Under the pieces are notes generated by a model. That model did no database searches, was not told where the DNA came from, and worked only from the letters and a program-made list of their open reading frames with translations. This document shows, one piece after another, positions 4,672 through 56,161 of a stretch of 64,000 nucleotides of DNA. The stretch is from assembly GCA_017395245.1 (NCBI GenBank), contig JAFPVR010000114.1, positions 645 to 64,644 on the forward strand, read 5' to 3'. The first letter of the stretch is position 1. Every line of letters starts with the position of its first letter. Source of the stretch: Bacteroidales bacterium (GTDB lineage Bacteria; Bacteroidota; Bacteroidia; Bacteroidales; WCHB1-69). The position numbers and the translations under genes were made by a program.

Positions 4672-7065
4672 CTACTCCTTCTTCAGCGCCTCCGCCGGGT
4701 TCGTCCGCGCGGCGCGGAGGGTCTGCCAAAGCACCGAGAGGAAGGCCATCAGCGCGGTGAGCAGGACCGCCACGGCGAAGACCCAGCCGTAATGCTCGAT
4801 GCGGTAGGCGAAACGTTCCAAGTATTTGCCACTGAGCCAAACGGAGATTGGAATGCCGATGACGGAGGCGATGCCCACGAGAAGCATGTAGCCTCTGACG
4901 TTGCGCCACAGCTCGCGACGCACATCGCTGCCGAAGGTTTTCCGGATGGCGATGCTCTTCGTGTTCTCGCCGCTATAGTAGGTGCTCATGGCGACGAGAC
5001 CGAGCAGGGAGATCAAGACGGATAGCAGCATGAACAGTTCGAGCAGGCGCATGGCCATTTTTGCAGGTTGCAGCGACAAGTTGTTAAGGTCCTTCACATA
5101 GCCGTTCTCTGCGGCTTCGACGACCATGCCGTTCTGTTCTTCGGAATAGGCACGGTAGGCTTGCATGATGGCTTTTTCGGTCTCTTTGTAATCGCCTGAA
5201 ACATCAATCATTACGCCGTTGCCCCAAGTCAAATCCTCCGCCTTGGCGATGATGATTGCCGAAAACTGGTTGGGTTCAGACGACGCAGCCGAGCGTGTCG
5301 GGATGTCCTCATAAACACCGCCCACGGTCTCGGGTCGAGAGCCATTGATGCGCATGTGTCGGGGGTAATAATGCATCGTTGAGTCGTTCAAAGCGAGTTT
5401 TTCGGCCAAAGTCTTCGACATCCAGACCGAATTGGTTTTTGGCACGCCGAAATCCTCAACAACCTGCAAACCGAGCATATCGAAATACGACTCGTCGCAC
5501 AGGATGAGTTGTATATTCACATTTTCGCCGTCGGGCGTTTTGACGCTGGTGCCCATGTTTAACTTTCCCGCAAAGCCGCGTCCGTAGCCCACTGCTTTCA
5601 CGTTCGGGATCTTCTCCAAACGGTCGATGAGAGGTGCTATATCGGAATAGTCCGCCACCCAGCATTGCAACGAATACAAGCCCTCCGAGCGCATGTTAGT
5701 GGGACGGTTCATCATGTGGCGCATCTGCACCTCCATCAGGATTGCCATGGCAATCAGGACGATGGTGATGGTGTTTTGGAACACGATGAACACCTTGCTG
5801 AACACCCTTTTGGTTTGAATCCGATAAGTGCCGCGCACCACGTTGATTGGCTCGAAACGCGAAGCGATGGCCGCTGGCGCGACGCCCGCCAAAGTGCCCA
5901 ACAGCACAACCGCCACAAGATATGCTGCCACAATGCCCGCCGACCACTCAAATCGAACAGGAACAAACTGCTCAAACGTCTCAGCATCGATACCCGTCTC
6001 GCCATCTGAAACGGCTCTTAGCAAGTCGTTTATCATCGGGAGCAAGGCGACAGCCAGCAGCAAGGCCAGCACGAAACAAACCGCCGTAAACGTCACAGAC
6101 TCAGTGATGTACTTCATCACAATACGGCCTTTCGTGGCACCGTGAAGCCGTCGTGTAGCCATCTCCTTGGCACGCTTTCCCGAGAGTGCCATGTTGAGGT
6201 TGACATAGTTGAAAATGGCCGAAAGCAAGAGCAACAAAACCACCACCGTAAGCATTTGCAGCACCGACTTGTTGCCTTTCTTGAACACCCACTGGCTATC
6301 ATTGAAAAAAACCTCTGGCAAGTTATAGATTGGCATAGCCTTCACGAAACCGTCGGAATAATTGGGAAGTCCGACCGCCTCGACTTTTTTCGCAAGCTGC
6401 TCACGGTCAGTGCCTTCATGGACTTTTATCAAGGTCATGTATTGCCCAATGGAACTGAAAGGCTCTTGGTTTCCCGAGGCATACAGCTCTTCAAATTCAG
6501 GATTGAAAAGCACATCAGTGTAAGGCACCATCGAGTTGGCGGCATCCTTAAACACGCCACAAACCACGCCTTCAATTTTTTCATCGAAATAACTGACTTT
6601 GAGCGGTTTACCAATAGCATCGCCATTGAAGGCGCGGTTGGCAAGTGACTCAGACACGAGACAATGCCCTTTGAGGCGGAACTCGTCGAGATTGCCGTCA
6701 ATCAAAATGAGACTTGGGAAGAGTTCAAAAAGCTCCGGGTCGGCCTCGGTGATGAAGGCTCTGACAGGCTGCTCGTCGCCGAAGGTGATGTAGCCGTCAT
6801 AGTCGGAGCCAGAGATGCGACACACGGCTTCAGCCTCGGGAAGCTTGTCCTCAAAGACGGCCTTGTCCCACCACGACAGCGACATAAAATCCTGGCATCC
6901 TACGGCATAAATCCTATCTCGATAAGGATTGCCGTAGGCCACGGAATACTGTTGATACACATAATTGCCAATCAGGATGACGAACGCAAGGCTCACCACC
7001 AGTCCCACCGCCTCGACGGCGGTGTAGAGTTTGTTTCTGCTGAGTAATTTAAGGTAGCTTTTCAT
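4672..7065 (-). CDS. ABC transporter permease, FtsX/MacB-like (two-domain, ~800 aa)
   Basis: ORF 4672..7089. Start moved to ATG 7065 (MKSYLKLLSRNKLYTAVEAVGLVVSLAF...), which matches the N-terminus of the 13630 paralogue. Two blocks of FtsX-type TM helices with large extracytoplasmic domains. Ends RTNPAEALKKE. Confidence 0.85.
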   Translation of the reverse strand: MKSYLKLLSRNKLYTAVEAVGLVVSLAFVILIGNYVYQQYSVAYGNPYRDRIYAVGCQDFMSLSWWDKAVFEDKLPEAEAVCRISGSDYDGYITFGDEQPVRAFITEADPELFELFPSLILIDGNLDEFRLKGHCLVSESLANRAFNGDAIGKPLKVSYFDEKIEGVVCGVFKDAANSMVPYTDVLFNPEFEELYASGNQEPFSSIGQYMTLIKVHEGTDREQLAKKVEAVGLPNYSDGFVKAMPIYNLPEVFFNDSQWVFKKGNKSVLQMLTVVVLLLLLSAIFNYVNLNMALSGKRAKEMATRRLHGATKGRIVMKYITESVTFTAVCFVLALLLAVALLPMINDLLRAVSDGETGIDAETFEQFVPVRFEWSAGIVAAYLVAVVLLGTLAGVAPAAIASRFEPINVVRGTYRIQTKRVFSKVFIVFQNTITIVLIAMAILMEVQMRHMMNRPTNMRSEGLYSLQCWVADYSDIAPLIDRLEKIPNVKAVGYGRGFAGKLNMGTSVKTPDGENVNIQLILCDESYFDMLGLQVVEDFGVPKTNSVWMSKTLAEKLALNDSTMHYYPRHMRINGSRPETVGGVYEDIPTRSAASSEPNQFSAIIIAKAEDLTWGNGVMIDVSGDYKETEKAIMQAYRAYSEEQNGMVVEAAENGYVKDLNNLSLQPAKMAMRLLELFMLLSVLISLLGLVAMSTYYSGENTKSIAIRKTFGSDVRRELWRNVRGYMLLVGIASVIGIPISVWLSGKYLERFAYRIEHYGWVFAVAVLLTALMAFLSVLWQTLRAARTNPAEALKKE

Positions 7066-7078
7066 ATCATTTGGTTTT

Positions 7079-7256
7079 AGGTTCCACACTGCGCTGCGTT
7101 TGTGTCACAGTCTCCACACTGCGCCGCGCCTTGTCGTTATCGCTGTCTCCGCAGTCCGGACTTTTCTGTCTTGTCAAGCCCCACACTACGGCTTCGCCTT
7201 GTGTGGGGTTAATTGCGCTTCGCGCGTTTTGCCTCTCCGAGGCTGCTCAAGGAAGA
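7079..7256 (-). repeat. structured 5'-leader repeat L1 (expanded; extra degenerate CCACAC modules)
   Basis: The core at 7179-7256 is gccccacactacggcttcgccttgtgtggggttaattgcgcttcgcgcgttttgcctctccgaggctgctcaaggaag. Two degenerate hairpin modules lie at 7082-7178. It ends 14 nt before ATG 7065. Confidence 0.8.
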
Positions 7257-11123: not shown

Positions 11124-11215
11124 GCCCCACATTACGCTCCTCCGTCGCTCATGTGGGGTTATTAGCACTTCGTGCGTTTTGTCCCTCCGGGACTGCTCAA
11201 GGAAGTGGTTATTAT
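11124..11215 (-). repeat. structured 5'-leader repeat L2
   Basis: All three stems are changed by compensatory pairs (CCCCACAT/ATGTGGGG, GCAC/GTGC, GTCCC/GGGAC). 29 nt before ATG 11095. Confidence 0.8.
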
Positions 11216-11234
11216 ATTGGGGTTTTACGTTCAT

Positions 11235-11283
11235 AAATCTCAAGTCTTAAATCTCAAGTCTTAAGTCTCAAATCTCACGTCTC
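11235..11283 (-). repeat. 7-nt tandem array (7 units; gene-sense GAGAyKT/AAGACTT) overlapping the FtsX stop codon
   Basis: Plus strand: aaatctc aagtctt aaatctc aagtctt aagtctc aaatctc acgtctc. The stop tca is at 11282-11284. Confidence 0.85.
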
Positions 11284-13630
11284 AATTCGCTTTCAGCGCC
11301 CTCGCGGGGTTGGTCTTCGCTGCTCGTAACGTCTGCCATAACACCGAGAGGAAGGCCAGCAACAGGGTGACCACAACCGCCACGACAATGATCCAGCCGT
11401 AATGTTCGATTCGGTAGGCGAAACGTTCCAAGTATTTGCCGCTAAGCCAAACCGCAATGGGAGCTCCGATGATGGCGGCGATTCCGACGAGCATCATATA
11501 ACTCTTCACCGTGCGCAGCAACTCGCGGTTGACATCGCTGCCGAAGACCTTGCGGACGGCAATACTGTGGCTTCCTTCATCGCAATAGTAGGTGCTCATG
11601 GCGACGAGGCCGAGCAGCGACAGCAACACCGACAAGCCCATGAAAATCTCCAACAGCCGCACGGTGCGCTTGGCTGGCTCCAACGACTTAAGATTCAGGT
11701 CGTCCACATAACCGCAATCGTCCTGTCCCGCAAAGGGTTCCCCATCCTTTTCCGCCCACTGCTGGCACTGTTTCAGGATAATCTTCCGAGCCTCCGAATG
11801 GTCGCCGATGGTTCTGACAAATAGATCGCTTGCCCATGTCAACTTCCGGGTTTCCTGTACCAGTACACCCACGTTCTGGTTGCTTAAGCCATCCGGAGAG
11901 GCCGCGCTCTCCCCCGGGAAATCTTTAAGCATTCCGCCGATGTAGTCGGCATCCTGATTCATCATGATTGCAAGTTTTTTCGGCATGGTAACGGAAGTGT
12001 CAGAAGCCCCGCTTTTGGCAAAGGCGTGTTCACCAAGCCAGAGCGAGTTGGCGAGTGGATGGCCGAAATCTTCCACCACTTCGAAACCTAACATGCGAAA
12101 ATAAGCGCTGTCACCGATGAGCAACTTCAAGATAAAATCTTCCTCGTCCAAACGTATGCCGACAGAATAAGCCGCGCTTCCGGGAAATCCTCGCCCTATG
12201 CCAACCTCTTTGACACAAGGCAGTTGCGCTATTTCATCGGCTAAAGTAGCCAAATGAGGCACAGAATACCAGATGCCGCTGATGTAAAACAAGTCTTTCG
12301 TGTTCGCATGGGTGGGACGCCTGATCATGTGCCACATCTGAACCTCCATCACGATGGCAATGGCTATCAGTATAACAGACAGGACGTTCTGGAAGACGAT
12401 GAAGATTTTGTTGAGCCACATCTTGCTGTGATGGCGAAATGTACCCCGCACCACATCAATGGGTTCGTAATACGATGCATACAGTGCGGGTAACCATCCC
12501 GAGAGTGTTCCCATCAGCAAGATTCCGCTCAGATACGCGACTATATAAGTCGGTTTCGTCATCAACTGCAATTGAATGTCGCTTTCCGGTGTTGCACTGG
12601 CCAACAGCCAGTTCATCACGGGAACAAGGGCGTGAGCCAACAAAAAGGCAAAACCGAAACATACTGCCGTGAACAACACAGATTCGATAATAAGTTTGCC
12701 CATGACGGAGAGTTTCTGTGCCCCCAAAAGCCTGCGGGTAGCCATCTCCTTGGCGCGTTTACCCACCAAAGCCATATTGAGGTTGACGTAGTTGATGAGT
12801 GCCGACAGAAGGAGAAGGAACACCACCGCCGACAATATCCGTATGCTGCTGAGGTTGCCGCTGCGTAATACATAATCGTTCTCAGTGCGGAAGAACATCT
12901 CCTTGAAACTGAATATTTTAAGTTCTTTATTTATCCACGATCCATAGTTTTGACGGCATACTTCAAGTATTTGTGCCTTGAAATCTTCTTCGTTGGTGTT
13001 TTCCATCCTGCGAATAAAGGTCTTCGTGCCGTCCACGCTGTGGAAAGGTTCGCGCCCAGCCCACCATTTCTCATTCACCGGAATCAATACATCAATGTGG
13101 GCAACCAAGGTGTTTTCCGGACCATCCATAATGCCGCAAATGATGTATTCCTCATCCTCTCCTTCTATGACGAAACGTTGTCCTATAAGGTCGCCCTTTT
13201 TCTCCAGACTGTTCGCGAAACTCCGGCTGACAATGGCGTTATGGGTGCCGTCGAACGGGATGGCTGTGCCCTCCACAAGGCTAAACTGGGGAAAGATCTT
13301 GAAGAACTCCGCATCCACCTGACGAACTTCCGCTTCATAGTTTTTTTTGTGGTAAGAAATCTCGTCGGTGGCATAGCCAAAGCGAGCTATAGCCTCGATT
13401 CCAGGCACCTGCGCTTCGATGGAGGACTTATCCCACACTGAAAGTCCCAAGTTGGAGGTGGTGCCGAGGCCGTAAATGCGGTCATGGCCAGGTTGCTGAT
13501 ACACGACGGCCAGATGTTGGGCCACGTAACTGCCGATTAGGATGACGAAGGCGAGGCTCACGACGAGCCCCACCGCTTCGACGGCGGTGTAGAGTTTGTT
13601 GCGACTGAGGAATTTGAGGTAGCTCTTCAT
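11282..13630 (-). CDS. ABC transporter permease, FtsX/MacB-like
   Basis: ORF 11282..13651. Start moved to ATG 13630 (MKSYLKFLSRNKLYTAVEAVGLVVSLAF...). Same architecture as 4672..7065. Confidence 0.85.
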   Translation of the reverse strand: MKSYLKFLSRNKLYTAVEAVGLVVSLAFVILIGSYVAQHLAVVYQQPGHDRIYGLGTTSNLGLSVWDKSSIEAQVPGIEAIARFGYATDEISYHKKNYEAEVRQVDAEFFKIFPQFSLVEGTAIPFDGTHNAIVSRSFANSLEKKGDLIGQRFVIEGEDEEYIICGIMDGPENTLVAHIDVLIPVNEKWWAGREPFHSVDGTKTFIRRMENTNEEDFKAQILEVCRQNYGSWINKELKIFSFKEMFFRTENDYVLRSGNLSSIRILSAVVFLLLLSALINYVNLNMALVGKRAKEMATRRLLGAQKLSVMGKLIIESVLFTAVCFGFAFLLAHALVPVMNWLLASATPESDIQLQLMTKPTYIVAYLSGILLMGTLSGWLPALYASYYEPIDVVRGTFRHHSKMWLNKIFIVFQNVLSVILIAIAIVMEVQMWHMIRRPTHANTKDLFYISGIWYSVPHLATLADEIAQLPCVKEVGIGRGFPGSAAYSVGIRLDEEDFILKLLIGDSAYFRMLGFEVVEDFGHPLANSLWLGEHAFAKSGASDTSVTMPKKLAIMMNQDADYIGGMLKDFPGESAASPDGLSNQNVGVLVQETRKLTWASDLFVRTIGDHSEARKIILKQCQQWAEKDGEPFAGQDDCGYVDDLNLKSLEPAKRTVRLLEIFMGLSVLLSLLGLVAMSTYYCDEGSHSIAVRKVFGSDVNRELLRTVKSYMMLVGIAAIIGAPIAVWLSGKYLERFAYRIEHYGWIIVVAVVVTLLLAFLSVLWQTLRAAKTNPARALKAN

Positions 13631-13644
13631 ATATTTTTGTTTTA

Positions 13645-14120: not shown

Positions 14121-14156
14121 CGAATTCTATTCTAAAAAAGCATATACTATCCCCAT

Positions 14157-14198
14157 CATTCATAATTCATAATTCATAATTCTTAATTCTTAATTTCC
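14157..14198 (-). repeat. 7-nt tandem array (6 units; gene-sense AAGAATT/ATGAATT) overlapping the HlyD stop
   Basis: Plus strand: cattcat aattcat aattcat aattctt aattctt aatttcc. Stop at 14183-14185. Confidence 0.85.
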
Positions 14199-15445
14199 AA
14201 CACTTCCGCCTCCCCATACCCGTCATACGACGACGTAATCACCCTCTCGCCCGGCTCCAGTCCTTCCAAAACCTCGTAGTACTGCGGATTCTGGCGACCG
14301 ATGCGTATCTCTCGCTTCACGGCACGTTTGCCGTCGGGGGAGACCACGTATATCCACTTGCCGCCGGTCTTTTGGTAGAAGGCGCCGCGCGGGATGAGCA
14401 CCGCCTCCACCGGCTGACCGAGCTGCAGGTTCAGGTAGAACGTCTGACCGTTGCGGATATTTTCCGGCTGACCGTCCGCAAATTTGAAGTCGGCCTTGAA
14501 CTTGCCGTCACGAACCTCGGGATAGACCTTGCGTATCAGCACGTTGCACTTGTCGCCCTGCCGCTCGAAGTCGGCCTCCAACCCTGCCGTCACCCGGTCG
14601 ATGTAGTGCTCGTCAATCAGGGCCTCGATCTTGTAGTTGTCCTGATTGTTAATCTGTCCGACCTTACTGCCCATCGCGACAGACTGTCCGAGCACCACAT
14701 CCACCAGGCCAAGTTCCCCGTCAATCGGAGCCTTGATGGTGAGATTGTCTTTACGCTGCCTAATCATCTGCATGTTGAGTTTCATGTTCTCCAAACTTTC
14801 GTGCATCTGCCGGATCTCCACCGAACGGTAGAGGCTGTCTTGCTTGGCGCGGTTCTCCACCAGCGTGAGGCGGTCTTTGGCCAACTGGTAGTCCTCCTCG
14901 GCCTGCAGAAAAGCCTCTCGGGCTATGAGGTTGTCGTCGTACAGCGACTTCTGCGCCTCGTAGGTGCGTTTCTTGCGGCGCACCTCCATCTGCAGCTGCA
15001 ACTTTTCCTGCTGCAGGGTCAGCTTCTGCTGCTCCATCTGGATCATCGTGTTGCGGAGGATGTTCTCCTTTTCGGCCAGGTCGGCTTCAGCATTGAGAAT
15101 CTGCATATCAAGACTTTCGTTGCTGAGTATCAGGATGATGTCGCCCTCACGGACGTGTGCGCCCTCCTCCGCGACGATTTCCTTCACTACCCCACCCTCC
15201 AACGGGCTAAGCTGCACGGTGGTCATCGGCACCACGCGCCCGCTCACGCGGATGTAGTCGTTGAACTCGCCCCGCCGCACCTCGCTGACGGTGATGGCTT
15301 CTCCGCCCACACGCAACTTCCTGGCGTCATCGCGCAGTGCCAGCCACCCGATGAAGACGAGCAGCAGTGCCCCGCCCCAGTAGGGCAACGCCTTGCGGGT
15401 GAAGAGTTTCCGGAATCCTTTTTTTTGCTCTATCGCTCTATCCAT
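14183..15445 (-). CDS. HlyD-family / efflux periplasmic adaptor subunit
   Basis: 420 aa with an N-terminal TM anchor, a long coiled-coil (QQEKLQLQMEVRRKKRTYEAQ...) and beta-barrel/lipoyl-like flanks. Located between the TolC-like and ABC genes. Confidence 0.85.
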   Translation of the reverse strand: MDRAIEQKKGFRKLFTRKALPYWGGALLLVFIGWLALRDDARKLRVGGEAITVSEVRRGEFNDYIRVSGRVVPMTTVQLSPLEGGVVKEIVAEEGAHVREGDIILILSNESLDMQILNAEADLAEKENILRNTMIQMEQQKLTLQQEKLQLQMEVRRKKRTYEAQKSLYDDNLIAREAFLQAEEDYQLAKDRLTLVENRAKQDSLYRSVEIRQMHESLENMKLNMQMIRQRKDNLTIKAPIDGELGLVDVVLGQSVAMGSKVGQINNQDNYKIEALIDEHYIDRVTAGLEADFERQGDKCNVLIRKVYPEVRDGKFKADFKFADGQPENIRNGQTFYLNLQLGQPVEAVLIPRGAFYQKTGGKWIYVVSPDGKRAVKREIRIGRQNPQYYEVLEGLEPGERVITSSYDGYGEAEVLEIKN

Positions 15446-15450
15446 TTAAT

Positions 15451-15478
15451 GGTTATTGGTTATGGGTTATAGGTTATT
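15451..15478 (-). repeat. 7-nt tandem array (4 units; gene-sense NATAACC) spanning the TolC stop and ending 5 nt before the HlyD ATG
   Basis: Plus strand: ggttatt ggttatg ggttata ggttatt. Confidence 0.85.
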
Positions 15479-16801
15479 GAAGCTGATACCAGCGTAATAT
15501 CGCACCACCCACGTCTTCAGAAACAGCTGCAACCGCGCGTTGAGGAGGTCGGCAACGGCGGTGAGGTGGTTGTCGGCAACGGTCTGGTAGTCAAGGGCGG
15601 AGATGAGGCCCTGTTCGAACTGGCGGACGCTCATGGCGTACAGCTGCTGCTGTAAGGCAGCGTGCTGCTGGGCTTGCTGGAGGGCAGCAGCGGCTCCGTC
15701 GCGGTCGGCAAGGGCGCGATGAATCTCGGCCTCAACGGTTTGCCGGGCCTGCGCGTATCGAGCTTCGGCACGGTCGCAGTCGTTGCGACGACGAGCAATC
15801 TCCGTCTGCCGCGACAGCCGGTTGTAGATCGGGATATTCAGCGAAAGCTGCACATACTCACCACCGTTGTTGGCAATCTGCTGTCCGTATGGGGCGGTCA
15901 CATAGTCCGTTCGACCAGGATAGGTGAAGTACGTAGAGGACCAGCCGCCATTCAGCGACAGCGAGGGTAGCAGCTGCCAGCGGGCGGTCTTGAGGGCGAG
16001 GCGGGCGGTCTGCCGCTCATTTTCGGCTATGATTACAGCGGGCAGACGATCTGCCGCCCGACTCACCTCCATCGTGTGCACCGCATCCGACAGCGACGTG
16101 TCCGCCTCCACATCCGTAACGGAAAACGGCTGTTCAGTCGGATATAACATAATGTCTTTCAACGTGATATAGGCATTCTGAAGCTGATTTTCACAGACGA
16201 TGTACTTGTATTTACGGTCGGAGAGTTCCGCCTCCATCTGTAGCACGTCCGCCTGCGACTTCTGCCCCAAATCTTTCTGTCGTTGTGCAAGCCGCAGAGC
16301 CGTCTCCGCTGTCTCCATCTGCGCCTGCACTGTCCTCGACAACTCCGTGAAATAGAGCACATTGCAGTAGGCTTCTATCGTGGCAAGCGTGATTTTGTCC
16401 TCCGTCTGCTGAATTCTCGTCACACCCGTCGCCTCCGCAATCTTCGTGATTTTCATGTTGTTGATTGCGCGAAAGCCGTTAAAGAGGGTGATACCTGCGG
16501 ATAGACTGTAGCCATTGTGGAAGGAGGTGGTGTTGCTGTAGGTATTGGTCTCAGGGTCAATGGAGCGCCCGAAGTTGGAATAGGCGTATGTATTGGCGTC
16601 AATCTCCGGGGTGAAAGCGTTGAGGATGGCGTTTCGGCGGGCCAGCTGCGCGTCCCCGAGGTCGGCCTGGAACACGCGCACCTCCGCTGAATGCGACAGC
16701 GCGTAACGTACGCAGTCGCGCAGGGTCATCATTGCCGTGTCCTGCGCGTGCGCCGCCCCGAACATCATCATCAACAGGATTATTATCGTTTTTTTGAACA
16801 T
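15467..16801 (-). CDS. TolC-family outer-membrane efflux protein
   Basis: ORF 15467..16831. Start moved to ATG 16801 (MFKKTIIILLMMMFGAAHAQ, signal peptide). Shows the repeated alpha-helical/beta-strand OEP pattern. Confidence 0.85.
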   Translation of the reverse strand: MFKKTIIILLMMMFGAAHAQDTAMMTLRDCVRYALSHSAEVRVFQADLGDAQLARRNAILNAFTPEIDANTYAYSNFGRSIDPETNTYSNTTSFHNGYSLSAGITLFNGFRAINNMKITKIAEATGVTRIQQTEDKITLATIEAYCNVLYFTELSRTVQAQMETAETALRLAQRQKDLGQKSQADVLQMEAELSDRKYKYIVCENQLQNAYITLKDIMLYPTEQPFSVTDVEADTSLSDAVHTMEVSRAADRLPAVIIAENERQTARLALKTARWQLLPSLSLNGGWSSTYFTYPGRTDYVTAPYGQQIANNGGEYVQLSLNIPIYNRLSRQTEIARRRNDCDRAEARYAQARQTVEAEIHRALADRDGAAAALQQAQQHAALQQQLYAMSVRQFEQGLISALDYQTVADNHLTAVADLLNARLQLFLKTWVVRYYAGISFNNL

Positions 16802-16960: not shown

Positions 16961-17030
16961 CATTACATACTTCATTCATAATTCATAATTCTACATTCTT
17001 CATTCTACATTCCTAATTCTTAATTATCAG
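16961..17030 (-). repeat. 7-nt tandem array (~10 units; gene-sense NNGAATK) overlapping the EamA stop
   Basis: Plus strand: cattaca tacttca ttcataa ttcataa ttctaca ttcttca ttctaca ttcctaa ttcttaa ttatcag. Confidence 0.8.
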
Positions 17031-17900: not shown

Positions 17901-17975
17901 GCCCCACACTGCGGCTTCGCCTTGTGTGGGGTTATTTGCGCTCCGCGCGTTTTGCCTCTTCGAGGCTGCTCAAGG
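17901..17975 (-). repeat. structured 5'-leader repeat L4
   Basis: 16 nt before ATG 17885. Confidence 0.8.
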
Positions 17976-22923: not shown

Positions 22924-23000
22924 GCCCCACACTGCGGCTTCGCCTTGTGTGGGGTTAATTGCGCTTCGCGCTTTTTGCCTCTTCGAGGCTGCTTAAGGAA
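22924..23000 (-). repeat. structured 5'-leader repeat L5 (archetype)
   Basis: Gene-sense sequence: TTCCTTAAGCAGCCTCGAAGAGGCAAAAAGCGCGAAGCGCAATTAACCCCACACAAGGCGAAGCCGCAGTGTGGGGC. 22 nt before the argS ATG at 22902. Confidence 0.85.
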
Positions 23001-23880: not shown

Positions 23881-23930
23881 CACTTTTTTCTGCAACATCC
23901 ATTCAACTTTTTCGTTAATGGCAAGTCTAC

Positions 23931-23996
23931 TGACTTTGACCTTTGACTATTGACTTTGACCTTTGACTTTGACTATTGACTTTGACTGTTGACCTC
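23931..23996 (+). repeat. 6/7-nt tandem array TGAC(T/C)TT / GACTAT (about 10 units) upstream of mpl
   Basis: Sequence: tgactttgacctttgactattgactttgacctttgactttgactattgactttgactgttgacctc. Confidence 0.8.
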
Positions 23997-28096: not shown

Positions 28097-28124
28097 ATAA
28101 CTACTAACTGCTAACTACTAACTC
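28097..28124 (-). repeat. 7-nt tandem array (4 units; gene-sense TAGTTAG) overlapping the Fe-ADH stop
   Basis: Plus strand: ataacta ctaactg ctaacta ctaactc. Lies between the Fe-ADH stop (28111) and the ALDH start (28076). Confidence 0.85.
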
Positions 28125-31229: not shown

Positions 31230-31251
31230 AAGGTCAGAATATTTCAAGGCG

Positions 31252-31259
31252 CAAAAATA
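31252..31259 (-). promoter_or_regulatory. -7 box (TATTTTTG)
   Basis: 23 nt upstream of ATG 31229. Confidence 0.55.
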
Positions 31260-31299
31260 GCATTTTTAATGGATATTGGATTTGGTATTGAAAAAGTTT

Positions 31300-31446
31300 A
31301 AGTCTTAAGTCTCAAGTCTCAAGTCTTAAGTCTCAAGTCTTAAGTCTCAAGTCTTAAGTCTCAAGTCTTAAGTCTCAAGTCTTAAGTCTCAAGTCTTAAG
31401 TCTTAAGTCTTAAGTCTTAAGTCTCAAGTCTTAAGTCTCAAGTCTC
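31300..31446 (-). repeat. 21-unit perfect-period heptamer array AAGTCT(T/C) (gene-sense RAGACTT)
   Basis: 147 bp with no indels and only T/C alternation at position 7. Lies between the DUF3667 stop (31472) and the FISUMP promoter box (31259-31252). Confidence 0.95.
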
Positions 31447-31471
31447 AAATTATCCCGTCGTTTCATTGTCT

Positions 31472-32469: not shown

Positions 32470-32504
32470 TAGTCTCAAGTCTCAAGTCTTAAGTCTTAAT
32501 TCTC
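32470..32504 (-). repeat. 7-nt tandem array (5 units, RAGACTT family) overlapping the thrS stop
   Basis: Plus strand: tagtctc aagtctc aagtctt aagtctt aattctc. Stop at 32496-32498. Confidence 0.85.
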
Positions 32505-37500: not shown

Positions 37501-37516
37501 AAGTTGTCTTTTTCAT
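34508..37516 (-). CDS. GH92-family glycoside hydrolase (alpha-mannosidase-like) with C-terminal CHB_HEX_C-like and discoidin (F5/8 type C)-like domains
   Basis: 1002 aa. Signal peptide, then the GH92 N-terminal hallmark YVNPFVGTAEHGHTYPGAILPFGAIQLSPDS. The C-terminal ~250 aa resemble carbohydrate-binding modules. Confidence 0.88.
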   Translation of the reverse strand: MKKTTLILFALIIAVFVGNAQSQYVNPFVGTAEHGHTYPGAILPFGAIQLSPDSRLEGWDGCSAYHYSDNRIYGFSHTHLNGTGCEDYGDILVTPFVGEPSVINEKYALAFSHANEKAEPGYYAVKFDNGINAEMTAANYVGVHRYTFPKDGKHGIIVDLKHRDKTLESYMTLKANDLVGFRRSEAWNDDQYCAFSLKTSVNPTEVVYYQDDKPVNVKEIKGTNCKAVLYFDERVTQVVVKVAISAVDMSGAVNNQTEVADFNFDRVHKQATEIWNKELGKIRVVSKNTEYLKTFYTALYHCFTSPYLYSDLDGRYRGEDQKIHHVDGDRKMYTVFSLWDTYRALHPLLNIIDRKRSADFLYTFMNQYRQSGYLPMWELSAFETWCMIGYHAVPVVFDAYQKGINDFPADEMLEAMIATANLNKLGRPEYVKYGFVPGDMENESVSKTLEYAYDDWCIAMYAKAIGNQKVYDEYIRRAQSYKNIMDPSGFMRGRMNGGFMTPFNPREVNNFYTEANCWQYTTYVPHDFNSYIDMMGGPKKMEMFLDRLFNSSSEMAGRQQSDITGVIGQYAHGNEPSHHAAYLYNFVGRPDKTQEMVKKILTELYTSKPDGLCGNEDCGQMSAWYVLSAVGFYPVCPGSNQYIIGYPLFDRVDLQLEKSKPLTIIKNGDKPYIQTVTLNGKPLTRSYLTYEEISKGGELVFTMGDKPGEAWGRGAGNMPVTRIDPKMAIVPVPVFSTDKVSFQDQTRIALMMPEVMDMTHKNVAPKREKQDEVKPDAKRDLKAQIHAVPVDGDGGYAIFYTTDGREPSPKTGILYKEPILVDKDMTIKAVAVDVKGKTSQVAEAHYVRYTRDKDLTYVTMPNPQYYAGGDAGLVDNLRGKVNYRIGGWQGFTTDCEVILDLREKKAVSKVGAGVLEEQRAWIFYPTAMEVYISDDGKDYKLFGKTEVNVPRTEGAHIQDVEVRGKANARYVKIVIRNYGKLPEWHLSAGQQAWLFVDEVWVK

Positions 37517-37582
37517 TTTATTGTTATTTTTTATTTGTTATTATCGTTTTGTCAACGTTATAAAAATTTAAAAATCATTTCC

Positions 37583-40500
37583 TTACAGCACCGTAATACT
37601 TCCCACCAACTTCTGCGGCCGTCCTGCCGTGTCCGTGTACTCAATCACATAGTTGTAAATCGTCTGATACTGGGTCTGGCCACGGTACTCGCCGTACCAA
37701 CGGAAATTCTTGTCCGTGCTGTAGAAGACCAGCTCGCCCCAACGGTTGTAGATGTAGACCTTGAAGAGGTTGATGTTGGAGGTGAAACCTTCCGGAATGT
37801 AGAAACAGTCGTTGAGGCCGTCCCCGCGTGAGGGGGTGATGGCATTGGGAAGCACAAGCTCGTAGTGGCAGCCTTCCACCCGGATATGCGCCGTCGCGCT
37901 GCAGCCACCCTCCGTGGCTGTCACCGAGTAAATGCCCGGCGATGTCACCACGATGGTCGTGGCTGTTTCGCCCGTGCTCCATACGTAGTCCGTCATCGGG
38001 CTCAAAACTGTCAGCGAGGCCTCGTTGTACTCGCAGAAGTCTTCCGTCAGCATCTCAATGCGCAAGGCCGTGTCAATGATTGTAAGCTGCAACGTCACCA
38101 CGCTGTCGCAACCATTGACCGTCTGCAGGTTCTGCACGCGTGTGAGCTCACCCGCCCCTATCGTCTCCTGCGGGCTGATGGCGAAGCCGTTCGCGTTGTA
38201 GCCCTCACCTTCGCAGACCGTGGCTTCGACAAGTTCAGCCACCACTGGGTTGACCGTCAAAAGCAGGACAACCATGCTGTCGCAGTGACCTGTGGCATGG
38301 TGTTGCTCGAAGGTGTAAACGCCCGCTTCCACAGTCTGATCCGCAGTAACATCAAAGTTGTATTCTGTATAAGTTTCACCTTGGCAGACACTTGCGGTAA
38401 CCGTATCGACAGAATTCGGCCATACATTGACCGTCACTACATTGCTATAGACCGTGCCGCAACTCTGACTCACCCATGCGCGACGCAACGAGAAAGCGTA
38501 GGCCGCGGTGTTCGGATAGGTGTAGCCCTGGGCATTGGCCGTACCGGGCGCAGGAGCCCAGTCCGTGCCGTTCGTGCTTATCTGCCACTGGTAGCCGCCA
38601 TTGTTGCCGCCCGAAGCCACCGTGCCCGTGAAGGGGGCAATGTCCTCGCCGTCGCACACCTCCTGCGAGGCGGCGATAGTGCCGGGTGTCAACTCGCCAT
38701 TCAGCGTATTGAGCGTCACCGTAGCGGTGGCTGTACAGCCAATGTGGTCTGTCACCGTGAAGGTGTACGTCCCCGCCGGACGGTTGCTGATGGAGGTTGT
38801 CATGGCGATATTCGTACCCGAGGCGTTCGTCCAAGCGTAGGTCATCGGGGTCTGCCCGCCTGTAACCGAAGCTGTGGCAGAACCCGTGGATTCGCCGTAG
38901 CAGGTGATGTGGGTGACATTACCGATGTTGGCAGAAATATTGTCCACAGAGAGGTGATACGTCACCACGCTGTCGGCCCCGTGCGAGGTGAGCAGCGTCA
39001 CCACGTGCGTGCCCGCCGCCGTGAAACTGTACCCGTGCCAGGTGTACGGCAGGTCGTCGGCGCAGACGGTGGTGTCGACGGTGGTCGTCACGTTCTGATA
39101 TACGGTCAGATGAATTGTCAGGACGCTGTCGCAGCCGAGTGTGTTTGTGAAATTTTGGGTGTAGGTGCCCGCTTCGATATACGAGATTTCGTTATATTGA
39201 AGGGGCAGGGCATTTTCGATGACAGCCGTGTCGATTGTGGCGTTCGTGACATGGTTCACGGTCAAATGCATCGTCACCACCGAGTCGCAGCCGAGAACAT
39301 TGGCATACGTATGCGGGTAATCGCCGGAAGTGGTGTACGTCACGCCACTCCATACAAAGCTTTCGCATACAGTGGTATCCAGCTCCGAATAGACGGAGGC
39401 CCGGAATGTGACGACAACCGAGGTATCCACCGAGCATCCGGATGTATCATAAATAGTGAAAGTATAGACAATAGTGGTGTCGTGGTCGAGATCCGCCGGC
39501 GGTTGGATGGTGAAGACCGAGTCGTTTACGGGTGTCACCCACGGACCTTGCGCTGTGGAGTAGTCAAAGACAAAGGTTGCTTCCGGCAACGCTTCGGTAC
39601 TCAAGGCCAATTCCCAACCGAAGATGTAGCCGTTGTCCACGCTCCAGCCGTCCATCACCTCGATAAACCAAGAGCCGTTCAGCGGACAACCTATCAGGTT
39701 GCTAAACGAATCGTCGGGATGGTAGAAGTGCGTGCCGGCCGCCACATTGGAGGAATCAACAATGCCATTATGCTCGTTTTCAGCACGGTAAATCAGGCTT
39801 CCCTCGCCCGGCGCATACGTGTAGCCCTGCGTAGTGTTGTTCGACCAGCAGTAATTCCATCCATTGCCCGGTTCGTTTCCAAAAGCAGTCGGGTCGCAAG
39901 TGCTCACGGAATAGTCGTATGCATCCCCTAAGAAGGTGCCCACATCCAGATTTGATCCGCTCTGCCAGCCGCGCGACGAAGGCGCTATCTGCGAGTTGCA
40001 ACTTGAACTACCCCAGCCTCCATATTTCAACAAATCCGCTTTTTGTCCATTGGGACAGGTGATATTAATATAAAGGTCGCCAATCCAGGAGTGCTCCATG
40101 TTGAGACGCACGTAGTAAATGTCGTCCACGCTCTCTATCGTGTCGCCGGGGGCGTAGGCCGAGAAGGTCAGCGGCGACTGGTAGGAACAACCGTATGGGT
40201 CACAGGAATATCCGTCGGGCAGGAAGATGGTGTCGGACAAAGTGAGCGTTGTCTCCCGGTTGCCCAAGAGGATATTGCTGCCCGGCTGGTAGCCCACCGT
40301 CACTGTATAAGCGCTGCCCGCGCAGAGCGAAGTGTCTATATCCACCGAAATGATCGGGTCATAAGTGGATGATACATAGTGTTCTGCGGTAACAGAGCAT
40401 CCGTAATTGTCTACTACCGTCACCGAGTAGAGACCTGCGGCGGTCACCGTAATGGACTGTGTCGTGTCGCCGGTATTCCACATATAGGAAGAGGCGTAGT

Positions 40501-43500
40501 CGGCGGTAAGGGCCACCGACGAATCCAAACACATCACAGAAGGACCTGCAATATGGTACGGAATGACGGGATAGGTGTTCAGCGTCATCACCACCGTGCT
40601 GTCCGCACCGGTAGCGGCGGCAAGGACCGCGTTCTGTGTGCCTGTCTCTGTAAAAGTGACCCCGTTCCAGGTGAACGGCAGCTCACTTTCGCAAACGGTG
40701 GAGTCAATCTCGGATGTCACGTTGGGGAAGACCGTCAGCGTGAGGGTGAGGATACTGTCGCAGCCAGAGACATTTGTTAAATACTGGATGTAAATGCCTT
40801 CTTCGATATACGAGATTTCGTTATATTGATAGGGCAATGCGTTTTCGACAATGGCCGTGTCGATAGTGCCGTAGGTGGTCGGAAGCATGGTCACCGTCAT
40901 GGTGATGGTGCTGTCCGCACCGGTATGGGCCAGGATGGTGGTCGTCTTCGTGCCCGCCACCGTGAACACGCTGTCGTTCCACGTGAACGGAAAGGCGGTT
41001 TCGCAGACGGCGGAATCGAGCTCGGAAGTGACGTTGGGGAAAACATTTAGGTTAACTGTCAGGATACTGTCACAGCCTGAAGCATTTGTTAAGTATTGGG
41101 TGTAGATGCCGGCTTCGACATACGTGCTGTCGTTATATTGATAAGGCAGGGCATTTTCGATGACGGCCAGTGTCACCGTGCCGTAGGTCGTCGAGGATTC
41201 CGTCACCGTCATCACCACTACGCTGTCCGCGCCCGTGGCGGCCTGCAGCAACACGCTGTCGGTGCCCGCCGCCGAAAACACCACGCCGTTCCAGGTAATC
41301 GGGAAACCGCCCTCGCAGACGATGGAATCCACCTCGACCATAACGTTAATCTGGAGGGTAAGAACACTGTCGCAACCCGCTGCATTCGTCAGGTATTGGG
41401 TGTAAATGCCAGCTTCGACATACGTGCTGTCGTTATATTGGATGGGCAGGGTGTTCACGTTGACGAGGGTGTCGAATGTGCCGTAGGTGGTCGGGAGCAT
41501 CGTCACCGTCATGGTGATGGCGCTGTCCGCACCGGTGTGGGCCAGAATCGTGGTAACTTTCGTACCGGCTTCCGTAAACACGCTGTCGTTCCATGTAAAC
41601 GGGAAGGCGGTTTCGCAGACGGCGGAATCAAGTTCCACTATAACGCCAAGATGGAGGGTGAGAATACTGTCGCAGCCGGCCGCATTCGTCAGCAATTGGG
41701 TATAGATACCTGCTTCGACATACGTGCTATCGTTATATTGATAGGGCAAGGCGTTTTCGATGACAGCCGTGTCGAAGGTGCCGTAGGTGGTCGGAGTCAC
41801 CGTCAGGGTCATCACCACGGTGCTGTCCGCGCCTTCTGCGGACAGAATGGTGGTGGTCTTCGTGCCCGCCGCCGTGAACACGCTGTCGTTCCAGGTGATG
41901 GGCAATTCGCCTTCGCAAACGACGGAGTCAACGAACGTGGTCACGTTCTCGTAAACATTGATAACGACGGTAAGGACGCTGTCGCAGCCGGCCGCGTTCG
42001 TCAGGTATTGGGTGTAGGTACCGGCTCCGGCACACGTACTGTCGTTATATTGATAGGGCAAGGCATTTTCGATGACGGCCAGCGTCACCGTGCCGTAGGT
42101 CGTCGGGGATTCCGTCACCGTCATCACCACCACGCTGTCCGCGCCCGTGGCGGCCTGCAGCAACACACTGTCGATGCCCGCCGCCGCAAACACCACGCCG
42201 TTCCAAGTGATCGGGAAACCGCCCTCGCAAACGACGGAGTCGAGATAGTTCGTCACGTTGGGGTAAACCGTCAGGGAGAGGGTGAGGATGCTGTCGCAAC
42301 CGGCGGCATTTGTGAGGTATTGGGTGTAAGTGCCGGCTTCGACATACGTGCTGTCGTTATATTGATAAGGCAAGGCGTTTTCGACAACAGCCGTGTCAAA
42401 GGTGCCGTAGGTGGTCGGAAGCACGGTGAGATTCATCGTGATGGTGCTGTCCGCGCCGGTGTGGGACAAGATCGTGGTCATTTTTGTTCCCGCTGCAGTG
42501 AAGATGCTGTCGTTCCAAGTGATGGGAAGCTCGCCCTCGCAGACGGTGGAGTCGATTTCAGAAGTCACATTCGGGAAAACCGCCAGGGTGAGGGTGAGGA
42601 TGCTGTCGCAGCCTAAAGAATTCGTCAAATATTGGGTGTAAGTACCAGCTTCGATATACGAGATGTCGTTATATTGATATGGTAGGGCATTTTCGATGAC
42701 GGCCGTATCGAAAGAGCCATAGGTAGTCGGAATCATCGTCACCGTCATGGTAATGGTGCTGTCCGCGCCCGTGTGGGCGAAGATGTTGGTCGTCTTCGTG
42801 CCTGCCGCCGTAAATACGCTGTCGTTCCAGGTAAACGGGAAGGCTGTTTCACAGACGGCGGAATCGAGCTCGGAAGTGACATTGGGGAAGACCGTCAGAG
42901 TGAGCGTGAGGATACTGTCGCAGCCGGCAGAATTCACCAGCATCTGGGTGTAGGTTCCGGCTTCGACATACGAGATTTCGTTATGTTGATAAGGCAGGGC
43001 ATTTTCGATGACCGCCGTGTCGAGGGTGCCGTAGGTGGTCGGAATGACGGTCAGCGTCATCGTGATGGTGCTGTCCGCGCCGGTATGGGCCGGAATGGTG
43101 GTCGTTATCGTTCCTGCTGCATTGAAGATGCTGTCGTTCCAGATGACTGGGAGCTCGCCTTCGCAGACGGTGGAGTCAATTTCAGCGGCAACATTCGGAA
43201 AAACCGTCAGGGTAATGGTGAGGAGGCTGTCGCAGCCGGCAGCATTTGTCAAGTACTGGGTGTAAGTGCCTGCTTCGACATACGTGCTGTCGTTATAGTG
43301 ATAGGGCAAGGCGTTTTCGACGATGGTCGTGTCGAAGGTGCCGTAGGTGGTCGGGACTACGGAAACATTCATCACCACCAGGCTGTCCGCACCGGTGGAA
43401 GCCGTCAAAATGGCCACCAGCGTGTCCGCCTGCGTGAACGTCACTCCGTTCCAGATGAACGGCAGCGCACCCTCGCAAATGGTGCTGTCCGCCGCATTGG

Positions 43501-52521: not shown

Positions 52522-52596
52522 CTCCACACTGCGCTCCGCTTGTGTGGAGTTAATTGCGCTTTGCGCGTTTTGCCTCTCCGAGGCTGCTTAAGGAAG
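52522..52596 (-). repeat. structured 5'-leader repeat L6
   Basis: Stem CTCCACAC/GTGTGGAG shows a compensatory change. 33 nt before ATG 52489 and only 15 nt after the preceding stop at 52612. Confidence 0.8.
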
Positions 52597-54309: not shown

Positions 54310-54353
54310 CTCTGTATATGTTCGTTCATCTCATCATCGTTTCATTATCCTCT

Positions 54354-54535
54354 TTCACCCAGGGCTCACTTCGTTCACCCTCACCTCTCCTTCACCCAGG
54401 GTGCTCACTTCGTTCACCCTCACCTCTCCTTCACCCAGGGCTCACTTCGTTCACCCTCACCTCTCCTTCACCCAGGGCTCACTTCGTTCACCCTCACCTC
54501 TCCTTCACCCAGGGCTCACTTCGTTCACCCTGGGC
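54354..54535 (-). repeat. 37-39-bp tandem repeat, 4 full + 1 partial units, in the leader of FISUMP 52612..54309
   Basis: Unit is ttcacccagggctcacttcgttcaccctcacctctcc (unit 2 has +tg). In gene sense each unit can fold as (C/G)AGGG-TGAACGAAGTGAG-CCCTG. The promoter-proximal partial unit (first in gene sense, 54504-54535) has a 7-bp stem, CCCAGGG/CCCTGGG. Confidence 0.9.
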
Positions 54536-54546
54536 TGACATACGAC

Positions 54547-54596: not shown

Positions 54597-54607
54597 TAAC
54601 GTTTACT

Positions 54608-54642
54608 CATTCTTCATTCTTCATTCTACATTCTTCATTCTG
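54608..54642 (-). repeat. 7-nt tandem array (5 units; gene-sense NAGAATG) immediately after a FISUMP stop
   Basis: Plus strand: cattctt cattctt cattcta cattctt cattctg, then the stop tca at 54643. Confidence 0.85.
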
Positions 54643-55986
54643 TCAGTCTTTCACGCAGCGGACGGAAAAACCGTATCGCTGGTCAATGTAAGAACTGTGC
54701 AAGTAATTATGGTAATTAAACATGTATCGATAATATGCGGAGCTTCCATAGAGGCTTGAAGTCCAGAAAACCGCTTGGGCTTTCCAATCACTGTAATAGT
54801 TGCTTGTGTTGAAATAGCCCACAGCATATATGCCGAACAGGGAGGCGTTGTTGGCGGACGGCTGGCAACCCACATTGCAAGTAGTGTTATTATCGTTCCA
54901 AAGTGTTTTGGCGGCCAGCGCCTTGCCGTAATTGTTATTGTTGCCGTTGCACCAATATCTCGGTACGCTCTGCACATAATTGACCAATTGGTCCCATTCA
55001 GCATTGCTCGGCACGTGCCAGCCATTTGGACAGATGCCCTGCACACCACTTGGGTTGGCGTTGGAGGAGGCCGCGCCGTGCATCACCGCCGCCCAGTTGT
55101 ATAGATAACCGCAGCGAATGAAAATGCTGGGGTCGGCCTGATGGTCATTCTCAGACACATAACCCCTGTAGCGGTATGGATCCGTGGAGGAGCACACCGT
55201 TCCCTCGGGTATGAGGGTGCCGTCGGCGAAACGGGTGGTGCGGAGGTTCTCGCGCATCCAGCATTGGTCGCCAAGCACAACCGTATGGTAGAGATTGCCG
55301 TCGTAATCGGCCACCACGCCGCAGTCAGTGGGCCGGTTGCGGGTGATCGTGTTGCTGATGAGACTGCCATTGCCGCCAGCCGCGCCCGCACCCTTGTCGC
55401 CCCGGCACTCCGTGACCACACAGTTGAGCAACGTACCGCCATTCCGCACATAAGCACCGCCGCCCTCGGCAGGTGTTCCGTCAGGATCCTCGTTGTAGGC
55501 GTCGCACTCCTTGAGGACGCAGTAGCGCACGACCGCATTAGTCCCGTCAATGAGGACGCCACCGCCGTAGGTGCTCGTAAACCCGTGACGGATCACACAG
55601 CCGTCCAAAGCACCGTTCACAGTGGCAATGCGGTGGACGCCCGTGCCCGTAACGATAGTGCACCAGTTGGTATCCGCCCAGTGGAGGTTCGCACCCGGGA
55701 GCCGCCGTTGCGAGGTGTCGGTGCCGGTCGATGTCGGATCGTAGCCGCCCATGACGGTCTTCCCTTGCGGGATGACCAGCTCCGCATCCGTGCTGTACGC
55801 ACCTGCCTTCACAAAGACCGTACCGCCCGGCTGTGCAAGACCCGCCGCGAGCGTCTTCTTCGCAGTCTCCCATGAGGTACCCGCGCCGCTGTCGTCGGTA
55901 GCGGAGGAGGAGACGTAGATATTCTGCGCATGGACGCATGTCACCCATACGCACAGCACGACGAGGGCCAGCATGTGCCGCATCAT
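54643..55986 (-). CDS. FISUMP-domain protein with N-terminal beta-helix-like module
   Basis: ORF 54643..56136. Start moved to ATG 55986 (MMRHMLALVVLCVWVTCVHAQ), because the upstream 50 codons translate the leader repeat. Contains DYDGNLYHTVVLGDQCWMRENLRT. Confidence 0.8.
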   Translation of the reverse strand: MMRHMLALVVLCVWVTCVHAQNIYVSSSATDDSGAGTSWETAKKTLAAGLAQPGGTVFVKAGAYSTDAELVIPQGKTVMGGYDPTSTGTDTSQRRLPGANLHWADTNWCTIVTGTGVHRIATVNGALDGCVIRHGFTSTYGGGVLIDGTNAVVRYCVLKECDAYNEDPDGTPAEGGGAYVRNGGTLLNCVVTECRGDKGAGAAGGNGSLISNTITRNRPTDCGVVADYDGNLYHTVVLGDQCWMRENLRTTRFADGTLIPEGTVCSSTDPYRYRGYVSENDHQADPSIFIRCGYLYNWAAVMHGAASSNANPSGVQGICPNGWHVPSNAEWDQLVNYVQSVPRYWCNGNNNNYGKALAAKTLWNDNNTTCNVGCQPSANNASLFGIYAVGYFNTSNYYSDWKAQAVFWTSSLYGSSAYYRYMFNYHNYLHSSYIDQRYGFSVRCVKD

Positions 55987-56115: not shown

Positions 56116-56117
56116 AT

Positions 56118-56161
56118 CATATTCAGCATTCATCATTCAGCATTCATCATTATACATTGAA
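56118..56161 (-). repeat. 7-nt tandem array (~6 units; gene-sense NNGAATG) immediately after a FISUMP stop
   Basis: Plus strand: cattcat cattcag cattcat cattata cattgaa, then the stop tca at 56162. Confidence 0.8.

Follow-up and report, generated by a model that had tools for sequence, protein, structure and literature searches.

How does a bacterium come to have genes that end in tandem repeats of seven nucleotides (nt), with the stop codon at the edge of the repeat or inside it? The question is raised by a 64,000-nt stretch of a Bacteroidales genome of the WCHB1-69 lineage (assembly GCA_017395245.1, contig JAFPVR010000114.1, positions 645 to 64,644; hereafter the window), in which an earlier note, made from the sequence alone, had listed nine such heptamer arrays at the ends of minus-strand genes. 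All nine arrays are present where that note had placed them, and the gene names that it gave are confirmed by Pfam. The window was scanned for tandem arrays with Tandem Repeats Finder (TRF) and with a self-match periodicity scan covering periods 4-15. The self-match scan returned eight runs at period 7 and six at period 14, against zero or one at each other period, so that the exact period of seven is far above chance, and TRF agrees in finding period-7 arrays. Phasing is not strict in two arrays, at EamA and at position 56117, where successive stop triplets are spaced by 3-9 nt.

The list of nine proved correct as far as it went, and three unlisted arrays, none of them at a stop codon, bring the total to 12 (Table 1). 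The arrays consist of 4 to 22 head-to-tail units and occupy 11 of the 30 intergenic regions. In a window that is 6.4% non-coding, they make up 13% of the 4,080 non-coding bases, and all 12 are either intergenic or overlap just the last codons of a gene. Three unit families recur within the window, namely GAATK (four times), RAGACTT (three times) and NATAACC (twice). An assembly artefact is ruled out, since assemblies made independently from different samples contain the same arrays.

The reading that we prefer, with moderate confidence, is that these arrays are slippage-generated heptanucleotide microsatellites, of the type of the short tandemly repeated repetitive (STRR) sequences and other long simple-sequence repeats, which have multiplied in the spacers of one rumen Bacteroidales lineage and have been filtered by local constraint. 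Their contact with stop codons then seems to be, for the most part, a by-product of the places in which such repeats can persist. Strand slippage during replication would add or remove 7-nt units and 14-nt double units, and point mutations within units would be spread or lost through further slippage; array length would thereby change and unit families would drift. A length of 7 nt is not divisible by 3, so that an array within a gene would throw it out of frame, and survival would be limited to spacers, whether between stop codon and terminator, between cistrons, in 5' leaders or upstream of promoters. An array located 3' of a gene could expand into the weakly constrained last codons. The arithmetic of the earlier note is sound here: since 7 and 3 are coprime, a stop-bearing unit gives stops in each frame, and an open reading frame (ORF) entering such an array would end within three units, leaving the annotated stop at the edge of the array or inside it. 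Beside a start codon, mainly G-poor, A-rich and unstructured units would persist, matching the normal Bacteroidetes initiation region, and this filter by position would yield the pattern of which family lies where. Slippage as the generator is suggested by strain differences of whole units and by the stepwise-related blocks within arrays, while selection would act as the filter and the arrays would have no required function.

The arrays are confined to one lineage. The ThrS protein of the window is 98% identical to that of uncultured rumen Bacteroidales metagenome-assembled genomes (MAGs) from goat, yak and cattle (RUG312, RGIG2805 and others), and relatives were surveyed through 80 thrS neighbourhoods comprising 1.3 Mb (individual contigs carry L numbers below). 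These hold 64 runs at period 7 and 44 at period 14, with at most 14 at any other period from 4 to 15. Every one of the 64 period-7 runs falls in the 727 kb that come from relatives with a ThrS identity of about 70% or more, and the 580 kb of thrS neighbourhoods from more distant Bacteroidota contain none. Density is uneven within the lineage, from 8-10 arrays per 20 kb in L007, L008 and L010 to no arrays in the thrS neighbourhoods of L011, L013, L014, L016 and L017, despite 93-98% ThrS identity. More than 15 unit families are found in the lineage, and 68 of 72 arrays are non-genic according to a codon-usage gene finder trained on the window. Many arrays are compound, with adjacent blocks that are one or two substitutions apart (for example TTTTTAC to TTTTCAC to ..CTAATCA). 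In one related MAG, two arrays have the unit GGTTTAG (L010:3047-3113 and 4902-4961), which is that of the plant telomere repeat TTTAGGG, most likely by coincidence.

Unit number was compared between strains, as the earlier note had proposed, and it varies. At the stop region of HlyD, the window carries three units, L090 two, L004 four and L087 about ten of an ATGAATG variant. Only a remnant of two units is left in L089, another family (GAAGWCA x3) fills the 20-nt HlyD-FtsX spacer in L093, and L092 has no array. Between contigs of the same species, the array differs by one ATGAATT unit. On the minus strand, positions 14154-14198 of the window read GGAAATTAAGAATTAAGAATTATGAATTATGAATTATGAATGATG, the HlyD ORF (14183-15445) terminates at the second TAA, and a hairpin lies about 40 nt downstream of the array. 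HlyD homologs that are 94-100% identical range from 418 to 430 residues in length, and the C-termini of homologs at least 94% identical read EVLEIKN, EVLEMKNVE, EVLEMR, EVLEM, EVLEIKNYEL or EQLEIRN. Orthologs at 79-85% identity end in EVLVF or EVLIF, and L092, the sole one examined at the DNA level, is without an array. Given these strain differences in stop-region DNA and in protein tails, the last native HlyD codons have therefore been overwritten by the array, with the protein tail drifting along. Directly after the HlyD array in L088, L089 and L091 lies a gene of converging orientation, either for an AAA ATPase or hypothetical, whose insertion cuts the array to two or three units in L088 and L091.

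Similar turnover is seen at other junctions. Among strains with 94-100% identical HlyD, the TolC-HlyD spacer holds three unrelated arrays: NATAACC x4 in the window, degenerate AAGAATG/CAGAATT in L087-L089 and NAGTTAG x4 in L090. The Fe-ADH ortholog of L008 has an AATTAAG array at the same stop where the window has NAGTTAG. The 22-unit array that follows the DUF3667 gene has 20 units in L662, and five short contigs stop inside it. In L663 (3440-3700, compared with window 31248-31471), the gene downstream of this array is replaced, with the breakpoint at the 3' end of the array, and the alternative gene is preceded by CCTTAAA CCTTAAA CCCTAAA CCTTAAA CCCT-ATG. Gene content switches exactly at array ends in L663, L088 and L091. 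The thrS array, on the other hand, is invariant in nine of nine same-species contigs, and rates therefore differ among loci. Additionally, the FtsX array is unchanged in the same-species contigs L001 and L002, the EamA array is identical in four same-species contigs and shorter in strain L087, and the TTGAC-type array is conserved in L087. At the thrS stop codon, arrays are present in three genomes (the window, L009 and L012) and missing from L007, L008, L010, L011 and L025. Synteny is broken directly after thrS, which makes conservation around this gene unusable; just L008 shares several junctions with the window.

The position of arrays was assessed in 40 co-directional clusters, with uniform placement in the spacer as the expectation. 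Twenty-two clusters lie from -21 to +12 nt of the upstream stop codon, compared with 11.4 expected, and eight lie near the downstream start codon, again with 11.4 expected. Divergent regions hold at least eight clusters and convergent regions six. The pull toward gene ends is real, then, but about twofold and not exclusive: the tight tie to stop codons put forward in the earlier note survives as this enrichment and breaks down for divergent and start-proximal arrays. It was also right that the real stop codon is often part of the array, which is true for FtsX, HlyD, TolC, EamA, Fe-ADH and thrS. The array that had been assigned to the end of TolC belongs instead to the NATAACC family found upstream of starts, here that of HlyD.

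Start-proximal arrays have a character of their own. NAGTTAG and CCTTAAA arrays, like those of NATAACC, lie in forward orientation a few nucleotides upstream of an initiation codon, and a normal start region is rich in A and poor in G, with A making up 59-66% at -13 to -11. The GAATK and RAGACTT arrays at HlyD, EamA, thrS and 54607 are not start-proximal. In L009 and L012, AAAATTR/GAATTAA arrays lie between the thrS stop and the terminator hairpin, as does the thrS array of the window. The 22-unit and TTGAC-type arrays are situated upstream of -7 promoter boxes that have the Bacteroidetes form TAnnTTTGC (at 31259 for the gene after the 22-unit array and at 23880 for FKBP); these boxes are outside the arrays, and none of the arrays is inside an ORF body. 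Boxes of this form are easily seen upstream of many window genes, for example at 32422 on the minus strand. For the DUF3667 gene, only 4 nt separate the end of the box from the ATG, so that the mRNA may be leaderless or nearly so. For the Mur ligase gene, no TAnnTTTGC box was found in the upstream region, which consists of the TTGAC-type and NATAACC arrays only.

Table 1. Heptamer arrays of the window (positions are those of the 64,000-nt stretch).
Coordinates	Strand	Unit family	Units	Context	Further observations
11234..11285	-	RAGAYTT	~7	TGA stop of FtsX/MacB is the TGA of the first unit	Seven sense stops at exact 7-nt spacing; TRF period 7/14
14154..14198	-	AAGAATT/ATGAATT/ATGAATG	~6	Supplies the final HlyD codons (..EIKN) and the TAA stop	
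15446..15479	-	NATAACC	4 + ATTAA	Begins within the stop codon of TolC and extends to the HlyD ATG	Start-proximal family
16961..17030	-	GAATK, degenerate	~10	EamA TAG stop within the third unit	
23927..23995	+	TTGAC-type	units of 6 and 7 nt mixed (period 13)	Divergent FKBP / Mur ligase region	No nearby stop codon
23998..24029	+	NATAACC	4 + ATTAA	Ends 6 nt upstream of the Mur ligase ATG (24036, plus strand)	Oriented as the downstream Mur ligase gene, not on the strand of the other arrays
28097..28124	-	NAGTTAG	4	Spans the Fe-ADH TAG stop	Ends in an ATG (28098-28096) that is not the modelled aldehyde dehydrogenase start (28076)
31294..31448	-	RAGACTT	22	Starts 23 nt past the DUF3667 stop	TTTTT after it; TRF score 234
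32470..32504	-	RAGACTT	4	Begins with the thrS TAA stop	Intrinsic-terminator hairpin (32470-32443) directly after
37516..37542	-	AATAACA/AATAAAA, weak		Ends at the ATG of the GH92 gene	TRF score 37-47; below the periodicity-scan threshold
54607..54650	-	GAATGAA/GAATGTA	~6	Begins 1 nt past the TGA stop of a Fib_succ_major gene	
56117..56161	-	GAATGMT	~6	Follows the TGA of one Fib_succ_major gene and passes the ATG of the next (56136)	Period 14

Slippage under a positional filter is the best-supported account of the period, the lineage restriction, the polymorphism, the rewritten protein tails, the arrays that are not at stop codons and the larger part of the stop content. Several observations weigh against it. 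NATAACC arrays with three or four units are in sense orientation in eight of eight distinct instances, and the ATG of a long ORF follows 5-11 nt later. They form a module, (a)gcttc-(NATAACC)3-4-att[ac]a..ATG, whose non-repeat flanks are the same before non-orthologous genes in four genomes (window 15446 and 23998, L007, L008 and L090). GAATK arrays that abut the end of a long upstream ORF are sense in 11 cases and antisense in one. Nineteen pairs of non-orthologous arrays have an exact 22-mer in common, and an identical 27-mer is present in the Fe-ADH NAGTTAG array of the window and at the TolC/HlyD junction of L090. As for stop triplets, which may be biased toward the sense strand, the 11 scored arrays of the window contain about 83 sense stops in about 76 units, with a stop in every unit and all three frames covered in each array, as the earlier note had claimed, compared with about 36 in antisense. 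Among co-directional units with a stop in one strand only, the stop is sense in 22 and antisense in nine. Local slippage alone does not predict recurring families, common flanks or an identical order of unit variants at non-orthologous sites, and both the orientation bias of NATAACC and GAATK and the preference for 7 over 5, 8 or 10 are beyond the slippage account. It is because of this family recurrence, orientation bias and period that two other explanations, one based on RNA and one on DNA copying, stay alive.

The stronger of these, which we regard as possible and clearly less probable than slippage, is that some families act in the transcript as spacer or leader modules, with slippage tuning expression. 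The G-less NATAACC and CCTTAAA arrays before an ATG would be Shine-Dalgarno-independent leaders held by S1 or a binder of the cold-shock type, with about one protein per 6-7 nt, and the purine-rich GAATK arrays after stop codons would separate the terminating ribosome from the terminator or from the next start. The orientation and conserved flanks of NATAACC fit this proposal, as do the sense bias of GAATK, the strain-specific gene in L663 whose four CCTTAAA-type units run into its ATG, and the thrS arrays of the window, L009 and L012, placed exactly between stop codon and terminator hairpin. Similar roles have been proposed for the TAACTGA repeats and the Nostoc heptamers described below. However, unit number and family differ in near-identical strains, many orthologous junctions are array-free, G-containing NAGTTAG and GAAGWCA arrays abut start codons too, and arrays are also found upstream of promoters.

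Predicted RNA structure speaks to the same question. The start-proximal arrays have a minimum free energy (MFE) near zero, in keeping with the A-rich, G-poor start context. The RAGACUU unit is quasi-palindromic (AAG-A-CUU), and the 22-unit RNA is predicted to fold into one long imperfect hairpin of -66.1 kcal/mol (z = -14.2), followed by UUUUU. This hairpin consists of 6-bp A/U-rich helices with an A·A mismatch every 7 nt, the variable A/G position pairs with U either way, and the terminator scan made no call on it. The MFE of every other family is about zero, with -0.9 kcal/mol for the HlyD array and 0 for the NATAACC array at 15446. A single structural role for the arrays was rejected, as RAGACTT folds strongly and the remaining families do not. 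No window array matches Rfam at the gathering threshold. Scans for terminators and sigma-70 promoters gave match counts near the shuffled expectation, and the thrS terminator is the one useful result among them.

An extended form of the RNA proposal, which we consider improbable, is that the lineage uses position-specialised heptad arrays as modular, length-tunable elements of untranslated regions. G-less NATAACC and CCTTAAA arrays with their conserved flanks would serve as cassettes copied to sites before start codons, as Shine-Dalgarno-independent leaders, and purine-rich or hairpin-forming arrays as end-of-gene insulators or terminator spacers. All would be read by a general binder of single-stranded RNA that covers about 7 nt, and template switching would spread them among genes.

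A separate dispersed element shares sequence with the start-proximal arrays. It is a double hairpin of about 75 nt, found in the window at 7180-7207, 11126-11157, 17903-17930, 22926-22953, 52523-52548, 56005-56032 and near 13640, with the minus-sense consensus ..gcgcGAAGCGCaattaaCCCCACACaaggcgaagccgcaGTGTGGGGc.. and no Rfam match at the gathering threshold. Its copies are found either 10-40 nt upstream of the starts of minus-strand genes or immediately behind arrays, and its left edge, AATAACC, is the unit of the start-proximal arrays.

The second explanation, which we judge unlikely, is copying and pasting at the DNA level. An array and its short flanks would be duplicated from one site into another, through template switching at microhomology for instance, and arrays would act as hot spots for rearrangement or gene-cassette exchange. 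The identical 27-mer at two unrelated junctions and the common flanks of NATAACC would follow from such copying, as would AATTAAGAATTAAGAATTATGAAT, which stands after CTGGAAA both at the HlyD end of the window and at the Fe-ADH end of L008. The alternating GAATGAA/GAATGTA units of the array at 54607 occur at non-orthologous sites (window 16974, L021 and L008). The changes in gene content at array ends and the synteny breaks after thrS are in line with exchange at arrays. Set against this, sharing of 22- to 27-mers within a family is not very improbable given that the units are nearly identical, breakpoints lie in intergenic DNA anyway, and no enzyme or mobile-element signature was found.

Less probable still is a translational backstop, in which arrays would be selected for stops in three frames that catch read-through or frameshifted ribosomes, the first role that the earlier note had suggested. 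In bacteria generally, no selection for fail-safe additional stop codons was found by Ho and Hurst (PMC6764699). The stop in every sense unit of the window arrays, the A/G variation in RAGACTT that preserves TAA or TGA, the twofold enrichment near stop codons and the excess of sense-only stops are all in favour of this idea. Stop content nevertheless seems to be near the baseline of AT-rich heptamers. In co-directional arrays, the consensus unit contains a stop in 33 of 45 cases in sense (73%) and in 20 of 45 in antisense (44%), compared with about 50% and 47% for composition-matched random heptamers, and 62% of all array orientations in the lineage contain one. A first orientation test based on ORFs alone was biased, as stop-less arrays let ORFs run through. 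In a content-independent paired test, which asks only whether an ORF arrives at the array, the counts are 13 vs 10 in the lineage and, among the matches listed, 20 vs 17 in metagenome contigs and 38 vs 11 in viral contigs, so a consistent sense-stop effect is not seen over the three sets. Once ORFs are filtered by coding score, their ends abut stop-bearing orientations in 25 cases and stop-less ones in 11, which matches the base rate of 89:55 over all arrays.

About 30% (11 of 36) of the stop-abutting arrays in relatives therefore have a unit without any stop triplet, and such units can start at the gene's own stop codon, as do GCTGTTG (L007), GCTTTTG (L010), GTTTATG (L025) and TATTGGC (L090). 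The 11 of 11 stop-bearing arrays of the window reduce to five independent families with a base rate of about 0.62 each, and stops in all frames would for this reason be mostly a chance product of AT-rich heptamers with a modest bias. Furthermore, unit number and family vary in near-identical strains, close relatives lack arrays at the same gene ends, arrays are present where no ORF ends, and one unit would suffice where 22 are found.

HutP reads UAG every 7 nt on RNA, so that the period matches the spacing of its sites, and several families present RAG or UAG once per unit. Binding by a sequence-specific oligomeric protein like HutP or TRAP, as the earlier note had also suggested, is nonetheless the least credible of the readings, since the more than 15 unrelated families have no common triplet or register (ATGAATT, NATAACC, CTTTGAA and CTGAAAA contain no RAG), unit counts range from 3 to 22, the window arrays are not placed in 5' leaders overlapping terminator or antiterminator structures, and no such protein was seen among the genes of the window, the only region scanned for it.

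Arrays of this kind are known elsewhere. TAACTGA heptamer arrays have been described in marine Beggiatoaceae, some cyanobacteria and five Bacteroidetes (MacGregor, 2015; PMC4679880). Most of them lie between genes, in forward orientation and immediately upstream of start codons, some overlap the preceding gene's stop codon, and the same paper states that forward repeats give stops in all three frames and proposes S1, Csp or CsrA as readers, without experiments. According to the account given there of Mrazek et al. (2007), heptanucleotides are the most abundant long simple-sequence repeats in most of the prokaryotic genomes surveyed, and polymerase-linked slippage was suggested as the cause. 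In Nostoc, dispersed TTTTGAA/TTCAAAA arrays lie near start codons and promoters, and deletion of one array altered the output of a reporter (bioRxiv 10.1101/2022.06.06.494920). No paper describing such arrays in Bacteroidales was found in the literature.

The arrays of the window are of this known kind, STRR or long simple-sequence heptamer repeats, and are closest to those of TAACTGA; the host lineage is new, the density very high and the families several. Like the TAACTGA arrays, they are tandem, intergenic 7-nt units of patchy lineage distribution that can be start-proximal and forward (NATAACC here), overlap upstream stops and give three-frame stops. In contrast to the single unit there, more than 15 families are found here, none of them TAACTGA and the nearest being NATAACC with the common TAAC. 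In addition, many arrays here lie at gene ends far from any start codon, and strain polymorphism and rewriting of C-terminal tails are seen. The cyanobacterial STRR and Nostoc repeats likewise comprise several heptamer families, each dispersed over many intergenic sites near starts and promoters, and similar AT-rich units (TTCAAAG, TTTCAGT) occur in the Bacteroidales lineage. They differ in phylum and unit sets, and a reporter effect is known for a cyanobacterial array only. With prokaryotic long simple-sequence repeats in general, as summarised in PMC4679880, the arrays share heptamer units, a non-coding location attributed to a length that is not a multiple of three, and a proposed slippage origin; the density here, with more than a third of intergenic regions occupied, is very high.

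Other comparisons are more distant. HutP and TRAP sites are also regularly spaced triplets on RNA, but the arrays lack a common triplet, a leader-terminator context and a cognate protein among the window's genes. The fail-safe or 'ambush' idea also concerns extra stops past the primary one, in and out of frame, whereas here they would be a by-product of an AT-rich repeat unit. Repeats involved in phase variation are likewise polymorphic in unit number between strains, and several genes next to the arrays encode surface or efflux proteins. Unlike such repeats, the arrays lie outside ORFs and not between the -33 and -7 promoter elements, and they flank housekeeping genes (thrS, Mur ligase) as well.

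Arrays with the GAATK core extend well beyond the lineage. Scans of public collections returned at least 120 metagenome contigs (L094-L213) and at least 120 viral contigs (L214-L333) at period 7, at least 120 viral contigs at period 6 and 101 at period 8, counts that are not comparable with one another. The contigs with heptamer arrays are very diverse and, among the matches listed, include giant-virus contigs and contigs from soil with 60-70% GC; many of the contigs carry several further period-7 arrays and few of other periods.

The window also contains tandem repeats of other kinds. Between two Fib_succ_major genes there is a 37-nt repeat (54350-54560; 4.9 copies, 96% identity), the last copy of which is assigned by Rfam to Acido-Lenti-1 RNA (RF01687; 54508-54560, plus strand, 38.9 bits against a threshold of 37). 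Coding repeats of about 312 nt (104 amino acids) and about 72% identity are found at 40663-43354 and 60085-60953, inside an ORF of 4515 amino acids (37583-51130) and a partial ORF of 1794 amino acids (58548-63932), respectively.

With many close strains sequenced from rumen metagenomes, this lineage is an unusually dense natural data set, in which gain and loss of units, swaps of family, rewriting of protein C-termini and coincidence with breakpoints in gene content can all be followed. The arrays also have practical consequences. They break short-read assemblies, and they shift predicted start and stop codons, which inflates the apparent diversity of protein clusters, as in the range of HlyD lengths noted above. 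They could, in turn, serve as strain markers. Should the start-proximal NATAACC module have a function, it would be relevant to the way in which translation is initiated in Bacteroidetes without Shine-Dalgarno pairing.

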